Positions 4,596 through 4,755 of a DNA stretch of 64,000 nt are shown here, piece by piece (within the stretch, counting starts at the first letter, position 1; each line of letters starts with the position of its first letter). Source of the DNA: Escherichia coli (GTDB lineage: Bacteria; Pseudomonadota; Gammaproteobacteria; Enterobacterales; Enterobacteriaceae); assembly GCF_003018235.1 (NCBI RefSeq), contig NZ_CP027437.1. One strand, 5' to 3'. The position numbers and the translations under genes are program-made. The notes below the pieces were generated by a model. The model did no database searches. It was not told the origin of the DNA and was given only the letters and a program-made list of their open reading frames with translations.

Positions 4596-4609
4596 CCATC
4601 AATGAAAAA

Positions 4610-4629
4610 GCCCACATCTGTGGGCTTTC
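4610..4629. terminator. Hairpin (GCCCACA-tc-TGTGGGC) between convergent autotransporter and ssrA; likely bidirectional terminator
   Basis: Perfect 7-bp stem with A-run upstream and T-run downstream. Confidence 0.4.
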
Positions 4630-4755
4630 ATGTCACCAGGAGCCGCGGCTCCTTTGCGTATCCTTTTTTGTCTCCTCACCGTCTGGTCGGTGTCTTGCTG
4701 AGACTTCTAACTTCCTGTTTTTGTTGGTGTTGTCCTTGCACCGTCCAATCATGAT

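Follow-up and report, generated by a model that had tools for sequence, protein, structure and literature searches.

The ssrA 3′ flank in an Escherichia coli strain: an empty integration site with a conserved, predicted structured trailer

The 160 nucleotides that follow ssrA in the 64,000-nt stretch of E. coli DNA analysed here (the window) are, with high probability, the native flank of an intact ssrA gene. The site is empty of any integrated element and holds a conserved 3′ trailer of ~156 nt, which would be co-transcribed with ssrA, folded and ended by an intrinsic terminator. The features of the locus are as follows.

28–4595, plus strand: ypjA/ehaD, adhesin-like autotransporter pseudogene (tblastn with K-12 YpjA; annotated ypjA in relatives)
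4600–4755, minus strand: conserved ssrA 3′ trailer, ~156 nt, three predicted hairpins plus a predicted intrinsic terminator (covariance model, alignments, RNAalifold, G-U asymmetry)
4755–4770: att core of CP4-57 type, the terminal 15 nt of ssrA and one further nt (two K-12 blastn segments overlap here; window aligned with attL and attR)
4756–4780: 25-bp attB of phage phiNP, TGGTGGAGCTGGCGGGAGTTGAACC, an exact single match in the window (site sequence from PMC6456863)
4756–5118, minus strand: ssrA (tmRNA), found by ARAGORN with tag ANDENYALAA and by Rfam RF00023 (295 bits, full model coverage) at the same coordinates
5133–5162, minus strand: promoter-like site 5′ of ssrA (TGGTCA, 18-nt spacer, TATACT), from a consensus scan only
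5333–5815, minus strand: smpB, a 160-aa ORF whose position matches annotated smpB of THO-008, K-12, UTI89 and E166

The ssrA gene is full length at 363 nt and ends in the wild-type sequence CGCCAGCTCCACCA, with T357 present; by alignment, A39T is its single difference from K-12 ssrA. The gap to ypjA spans exactly 160 nt (4596–4755), the autotransporter frame ending in VNWSF-TGA at 4593–4595 on the plus strand. The initial annotation had placed a convergent autotransporter frame within 160 bp of the tmRNA 3′ end, and ARAGORN, Rfam and this TGA show its coordinates to be exact. No ORF of at least 60 aa in the ORF list lies inside the gap, and the sole listed ORF touching it (4559–4777, plus strand) overlaps ssrA. 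No integrase or other mobile-element gene is located between ypjA and the end of ssrA, and the trailer fills the 160 nt; downstream of ssrA the window shows only 4.7 kb. An integrase or att duplication in 4596–4755, the finding that would have spoken against an empty site, was looked for and is absent. The description of the gap as holding "only a hairpin" has to be revised, as the gap contains four conserved hairpins (three plus the terminator) within a conserved ssrA trailer.

In K-12 MG1655, ssrA is followed by CP4-57 (2755941–2777971, intA first), a 14-nt pseudo-ssrA (psaA), 160 nt and the convergent ypjA. The initial annotation had named the CP4-57 integrase and prophage at this position, and they are seen in the MG1655 record. 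Using blastn, window 6000..4755 aligns with K-12 2754711–2755956 at 99.2% identity, and window 4770..1 with K-12 2777972–2782753 at 94%; the proposed alignment across ssrA and ypjA thus finds both CP4-57 flanks joined in the window. The two segments overlap by 16 nt (4755–4770), a sequence with one copy in the window and two in K-12, where attL and the degenerate attR/psaA flank the 22-kb CP4-57. The K-12 CP4-57 feature begins 15 nt before the end of ssrA, and attR (psaA) reads CGCCAGC-CCACCA. The 160-nt spacer is identical at 155 of 160 positions to the K-12 sequence between psaA and ypjA. Since the CP4-57 flanks are joined and the core occurs once rather than twice, the window represents exactly the empty state of the K-12 ssrA site. 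The initial annotation was right that an ssrA-integrated element is lacking: the window corresponds to K-12 minus CP4-57 and one core copy.

The K-12 attR copy is without T357, and CP4-57 excision yields an inactive tmRNA, with ribosome rescue switched to ArfA (PMC10107115). The window ssrA does not carry this ΔT357 scar and has a functional-type end. The published phiNP attB is matched exactly, and the site is a candidate for integration by a cognate integrase. Allowing up to 3 mismatches, the ssrA 3′ 25-mer is found a single time in the 64-kb window. For the 15-mer core, a further site with 2 mismatches lies at 51352–51366 within a prophage structural gene. This was rejected as a second att core, being at chance level (3 of 100 shuffles equal the match count), and as an island edge 46 kb away, as such an island would include core genes syntenic with K-12.

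The convergent autotransporter gene stands in the position and orientation that had been described, but it is not intact. By tblastn, K-12 YpjA residues 1–148 map to frame 1 (28–471) and residues 146–1526 to frame 3 (462–4592), so that the pseudogene has a frameshift near 462–471, and an in-frame TAG (amber) at 4473–4475 lies 40 codons short of the normal end. The ypjA region is 94% identical to K-12, versus 99.2% on the smpB–ssrA side. In K-12, ypjA-pinH-ypjBC-ileY-ygaQ form an accessory block of ~10.8 kb (locus segment 25147–35986). Its left edge is the trailer terminator, and no ssrA-derived repeat was found at its right edge in K-12. In 1,100 E. coli genomes ypjA is absent together with the accessory segment, and the trailer there adjoins glaH (E166 locus segment 8474–9156).

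On the other side of ssrA, the 17.6-kb core stretch from smpB to pheA (5200–22800) reaches at most 98.8% identity in a set of 5,426 complete E. coli genomes, where its source lineage, possibly Shigella or a rare E. coli lineage, must be poorly represented. The prophage that the initial annotation had placed next to pheA is confirmed: collinearity with other E. coli breaks at ~23072–23078, shortly after the Phe leader, and an integrase comes next.

22874–22999: Phe leader (Rfam)
23072–64000: prophage just beyond pheL, running past the window end
23164–24168, minus strand: tyrosine integrase
33204–35126: P2-type GPA replication protein, in a P2-like early region (Cox in the annotated relative)
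36603–37319: Q antiterminator, among lambdoid late genes, with lysis genes
46444–48567: terminase gpA, among lambdoid late genes
60568–63915: tail tip protein J, among lambdoid late genes

The prophage gene order agrees with an annotated relative, and the closest relative lies in E. coli O158:H23 CFIAFB20140388 (97%). Its early region contains two C4 antisense RNAs (RF01695; 25788–25875 and 32751–32838, 74 and 77 bits), which have a common 55-nt repeat of 76% identity, and one isrK (32641–32715). At 39458–42349 are located phage-borne tRNA-Arg(UCU) and tRNA-Gly(UCC), STnc100 (39912–40122) and a NanS-p-like esterase (SASA/DUF1737/DUF6645), in a backbone 87% similar to Stx2 phages. As only ~600 nt separate the tRNAs from the esterase gene, there is no room for stx at its usual position.

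The distribution of the trailer was determined by scanning one genome per species with an exact 23-mer, consisting of the gene end CCAGCTCCACCA and the first 11 flank nucleotides ATCATGATTGG. This word was matched in 14 species representatives from Enterobacteriaceae and Tatumella: Lelliottia, Mangrovibacter, E. whittamii, Escherichia sp. E1V33, two Enterobacter, Citrobacter, two Klebsiella, Tatumella, Pseudenterobacter, Trabulsiella, an Enterobacteriaceae and a contig in a Chryseobacterium assembly. In 11 of these 14 the trailer is immediately preceded by a full tmRNA, and in two by just a 28-nt ssrA 3′ fragment (attR type); for the Mangrovibacter locus, the 123-nt upstream view is too short to judge tmRNA presence. 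Some 155 nt after the CCA align with a mean column identity of 83%, up to a hairpin and T-run, and the sequences are unrelated beyond. A covariance model of the trailer has a single strong match in the window, at 4600–4755 on the minus strand (182.9 bits).

In Klebsiella, Enterobacter and Citrobacter the trailer is 87–91% identical to that of the window. This is above smpB (80–83%), while the smpB–ssrA intergenic region can be aligned over 7–34% of its length only; in the same comparison, ssrA alone is more conserved than the trailer (95–97%). Exchange of trailer copies between phages and hosts could inflate this apparent conservation. The sequence CCAATCATGATTGG at 4745–4758 is a perfect 14-nt palindrome across the mature ssrA 3′ end; its 11 flank bases are invariant in all host copies found, but are part of the search word, and flank bases in this region differ among phage and Proteus copies. 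A small ORF in ssrA sense (ATG to TGA, 39 codons, beginning 4 nt past the CCA) was discarded as a candidate, with a stop after four codons in Lelliottia, Enterobacter and Klebsiella.

Homologous sequences are also found on phages. BLAST against phage records shows that the attP regions of phages LLS, phiNP, Ayreon, LMessi and PhiR12 contain the ssrA end followed by the trailer, the LLS attP matching at 88.9% over 188 nt and being annotated "tmRNA pseudogene / attP". P2-like ssrA phages match the 36-nt gene end only. The trailer also occurs on circular phage-like "plasmids" of 30–45 kb in E. coli and K. pneumoniae, its 17-mer core is present in at least 120 IMG/VR contigs, and a diverged copy, with other palindromes in place of whole stems, is found on the Proteus mirabilis chromosome. 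The integrases adjacent to these trailers are unrelated: those of LLS and LMessi are 67% identical, that of Ayreon is P4-like with 25% identity to IntA, that of a Klebsiella phage has no BLAST similarity, and that of the CT01 phage is of dusA type. What the trailer accompanies is thus the target gene, not a single recombinase.

The CT01 copy is carried on E. coli CT01 "plasmid unnamed3" (NZ_CP081794.1, 32040–32216), a circular phage genome of 43.7 kb that encodes a dusA-type integrase. This trailer, at 83–86% identity, is preceded by a degenerate ssrA-like 3′ end (…CCGCCGCCCCCCCCACCA) and is flanked by a type II restriction-modification cassette and by dinI, at a distance from the att region of the phage itself. 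An internal 85-nt trailer fragment (trailer positions 9–93, hairpins 1–2, 87% identity) is present in the K. pneumoniae IncF plasmid p90CM2-172k at 56306–56390; a fragment of the same type occurs in five similar large conjugative Klebsiella plasmids, adjoining a TonB-family gene fragment.

The fold predicted for the trailer comprises the following elements.

4726–4742, minus strand: predicted hairpin 1, stem GGTG/CACC with conserved loop AGGAC (RNAalifold; compensatory changes in two to four of five pairs)
4670–4704, minus strand: predicted hairpin 2, outer stem GTCTC/GAGAC, inner stem ACCG/CGGT, loop ACCAGA (RNAalifold and pair counts)
4634–4658, minus strand: predicted hairpin 3, GGAGC-CGCG-GCTCC closed by CGC/GTG (RNAalifold and pair counts)
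4605–4628: putative terminator hairpin, AAAGCCCAC-AGAT-GTGGGCTTTTT in minus-strand reading (sequence, fold, conservation)

Compensatory variants of hairpin 2 are found in Mangrovibacter and phages LMessi and PhiR12, and the entire stem of hairpin 3 is swapped for a different palindrome in Proteus, LMessi and PhiR12. In a structure-independent alignment of related sequences, whose first 11 nt are invariant by ascertainment through the exact-word search, 95% of cells pair and 9 of 33 pairs carry compensatory change, compared to 3.7 ± 1.2 in shuffles and 1–7 in slid controls. The "further pair types" measure on this alignment was not above shuffles (410/500). A second alignment holds 57 distinct viral-contig copies; these were fitted to the covariance model, are mutually related, come from IMG/VR contigs that can include host flanks, and have a hairpin 2 inner stem made invariant by the search word, and here 97.4% of cells are paired with 16 of 33 pairs compensatory (5.1 ± 1.3 in shuffles, at most 7 in slid controls). 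The compensatory-pair counts of both alignments exceed all 500 shuffles. These changes support the view that the trailer is a structured RNA with conserved secondary structure.

The two strands are not distinguished by single-sequence folding (z of −3.5 and −3.7). G-U cells number 130 versus 22 A-C cells, and pairing is 97.4% in the ssrA sense versus 91.4% in the antisense; the G-U excess favours an RNA of ssrA orientation as the target of selection. The putative terminator, GCCCAC-AGAT-GTGGGC followed by TTTTT, is visible on the minus strand, where a simple consensus terminator scan did not flag it, probably because the A-run pairs with part of the T-run. Hairpin and T-run are kept in 15 of 16 family members. 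Given the flanking A-run and T-run, the terminator is plausibly bidirectional, serving ssrA and ypjA.

It is conceivable, if on balance unlikely, that the trailer is an independent sRNA gene with its own promoter, or that it is released from the ssrA precursor as a stable, trans-acting sRNA. Such a role would suit 110–150 nt of predicted structured RNA with a terminator and U-tail at its end, the conserved and presumably single-stranded A-rich stretches CAAAAACAGGAAGUUAG and GACAAAAAAGGAUACGC, a conservation above that of smpB, and retention by phages with different integrases. However, no convincing conserved internal promoter could be read from the structure-independent alignment. No Rfam family covers the spacer, either at the gathering threshold or at E ≤ 1 over 4450–5250, the matches in it being at chance level (rsmX and isrB on the opposite strand, and tmRNA_permuted at 18.6 bits). 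GGA motifs are not significantly enriched, which also disposes of a CsrA/RsmA sponge as a candidate: 5–7 occur versus 3–4.5 ± 1.7 expected, most sequences are not significant, and divergent copies have 2–4. A trailer of the ssrA unit is the preferred reading. No description of an ssrA trailer, downstream sRNA or external transcribed spacer was found in searchable papers, none of which contains the core 16-mer of the trailer, and the conserved ssrA trailer may be undescribed.

To place the window among other strains, junctions were counted over 5,426 complete E. coli genomes. The arrangement of the window, with ssrA, trailer and ypjA contiguous, occurs in 1,388 genomes (801-nt probe of ypjA end, spacer and ssrA, coverage ≥80%). 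In 1,100 genomes ssrA, trailer and glaH are contiguous and the entire ypjA–ygaQ segment is absent (1,001-nt probe from strain E166). A 200-nt probe finds the ssrA–trailer junction unbroken in 2,569 genomes, but this probe counts ssrA–trailer junctions and not empty sites, and was replaced by the two longer ones. Some 80 genomes are matched by the 200-nt probe and by neither long probe, and include cases like UTI89, in which ssrA and a homologous trailer are followed directly by prophage genes (GIY-YIG, DinI-like, tail fibre and baseplate; locus segment 7785–9152). The short probe is thus unable to separate an empty site from occupancy by a trailer-bearing phage.

The site is empty in about 46% of these E. 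coli genomes, while in the remainder the 3′ end of ssrA is interrupted. The gene-end copies that have been displaced differ in length, with sampled matches of the 200-nt probe reaching window positions 4761, 4769, 4778, 4782 and 4800, which fits different elements using different sub-sites. The empty ssrA site is an ordinary state of an already-known polymorphism, in its ypjA-junction form in about a quarter of genomes. It matters little by itself, but shows that the strain has a native, functional ssrA end.

With ssrA such a heavily used integration site, interrupted at its 3′ end in about half of E. coli genomes, the site could have been occupied earlier and cured by clean excision of the element, as opposed to never having been occupied. 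Elements with perfect repeats do restore wild-type ssrA when they excise (PMC10107115, Table 1), and a precise excision is traceless, so that both histories look alike in sequence. Excision of a K-12-type CP4-57 is nevertheless excluded, as it would leave ΔT357 and T357 is present. The trailer is moreover of the Escherichia lineage type, given its match to the K-12 host-side copy, and we regard a cured site as improbable.

The presence of the ssrA 3′ end and a homologous trailer in lambdoid attP regions, the many IMG/VR contigs with the core 17-mer and the UTI89 arrangement would also suit a trailer that is not host-native but the remnant attL arm of an ssrA phage whose prophage was later deleted. 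The variants track the host instead, with one type across Escherichia species and another in Klebsiella, Enterobacter and Lelliottia, and copies on phages are similar to the type of the genus that the phage infects. Furthermore, chromosomal ypjA or glaH follows the trailer in the window, THO-008, the K-12 attR side and E166, with homology stopping exactly at the terminator. A phage origin of the flank is thus just as improbable as a cured site, and a native flank remains the preferred reading.

RGAY/GAC motifs are located at trailer positions 10, 21, 61, 72, 83 and 93 (window 4663–4746, minus strand), about one helical turn apart, and a similar array is present in the divergent LMessi copy, with the long gap 11 nt shorter. 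Conservation of DNA protein-binding sites (integrase arm-type, IHF or Xis sites of attP) rather than of RNA is very improbable: the phased motifs can be likened to P2 Int arm sites, whose consensus is TGTGGACA, but their phasing was spotted only after the sequence had been seen, the integrases beside trailers are unrelated, empty host sites have no use for arm sites, and the hairpins are kept by compensatory changes with a G-U excess on one strand.

Comparison with the closest known systems places the locus as follows. The attB, attL and attR of CP4-57 in K-12 involve the same gene, the same core (the last 15 nt of ssrA) and the same flanks as the window, which differs in being without the element and in an ssrA that keeps T357, whereas excision in K-12 inactivates tmRNA (PMC10107115). 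Phages that supply 3′ ends at tRNA/tmRNA sites, here phiNP (25-bp attB), LLS (29-bp identity) and the P2-like Fels-2/SopEPhi type, integrate at the 3′ end of ssrA and use a copy of their own to restore the gene (PMC6456863, PMC12315714). Their ssrA targets are present once in the window. While the LLS and phiNP papers describe 25–29 bp of identity, the host flank is homologous here to the attP regions of LLS, Ayreon, phiNP and LMessi for ~150 nt past the gene, up to the terminator.

Like bidirectional terminators of convergent genes, the stem GCCCAC/GTGGGC is located with an A-run and T-run between ypjA and ssrA. Unlike them, the T-run on the ypjA side is short (TTTC), and conservation follows ssrA while the neighbouring gene differs between genera. 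A processed trailer that acts as an sRNA sponge is known in 3′ETS-leuZ of the glyW-cysT-leuZ tRNA operon. The ssrA trailer resembles it in position, with a stable-RNA 3′ end before it and a putative intrinsic terminator after it, and would likewise be co-transcribed and removed in maturation. The two have no sequence relationship, and a sponge role for the ssrA trailer is speculation.

The empty site, its collinearity with K-12, and the conservation, covariation and strand asymmetry of the trailer are observed here, while co-transcription and processing of the trailer, and any role beyond termination, we infer, and the following model can be proposed. Transcription of ssrA would start from the promoter-like site at 5133–5162, run through the gene and trailer, and stop at the 4605–4628 hairpin and U-run; the same hairpin may halt convergent ypjA transcription. 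The trailer would fold into its three hairpins before the terminator, and mature tmRNA would be cut from a primary transcript of ~520 nt. Elements integrating at ssrA displace the trailer, some (CP4-57 and P2-like phages among them) bringing an unrelated tail and others, like the lambdoid LLS, Ayreon, LMessi and phiNP, a homologous trailer copy. CP4-57 provides K-12 ssrA with an unrelated 87-nt tail and terminator, a replacement terminator being confirmed for CP4-57 only. The K-12 tmRNA precursor, reported at 457 nt, agrees with this tail. As K-12 has functional tmRNA with an unrelated tail, the conserved trailer is not essential for tmRNA. Roles of the hairpins and the two A-rich stretches in precursor processing or stability, or within a released stable RNA, are possibilities.

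We propose, tentatively and with more doubt than conviction, that the trailer is an undescribed functional structured RNA of Enterobacterales, either as trailer of the ssrA unit or as a processed stable RNA, which phages with unrelated integrases would copy to keep tmRNA expression normal. It may have been overlooked because CP4-57 parts it from ssrA in K-12, and other much-studied strains are also reported to have ssrA elements. The K-12 ssrA transcription unit is chimeric, with tail and terminator from CP4-57 and the native tail 22 kb away beside ypjA; work on K-12 tmRNA maturation has therefore never seen the native precursor. If the trailer affects the level or processing of tmRNA, or gives rise to a separate RNA, the effect of integration at ssrA would go beyond the last bases of the gene, and retention of the trailer by phages with different integrases would become a testable question.
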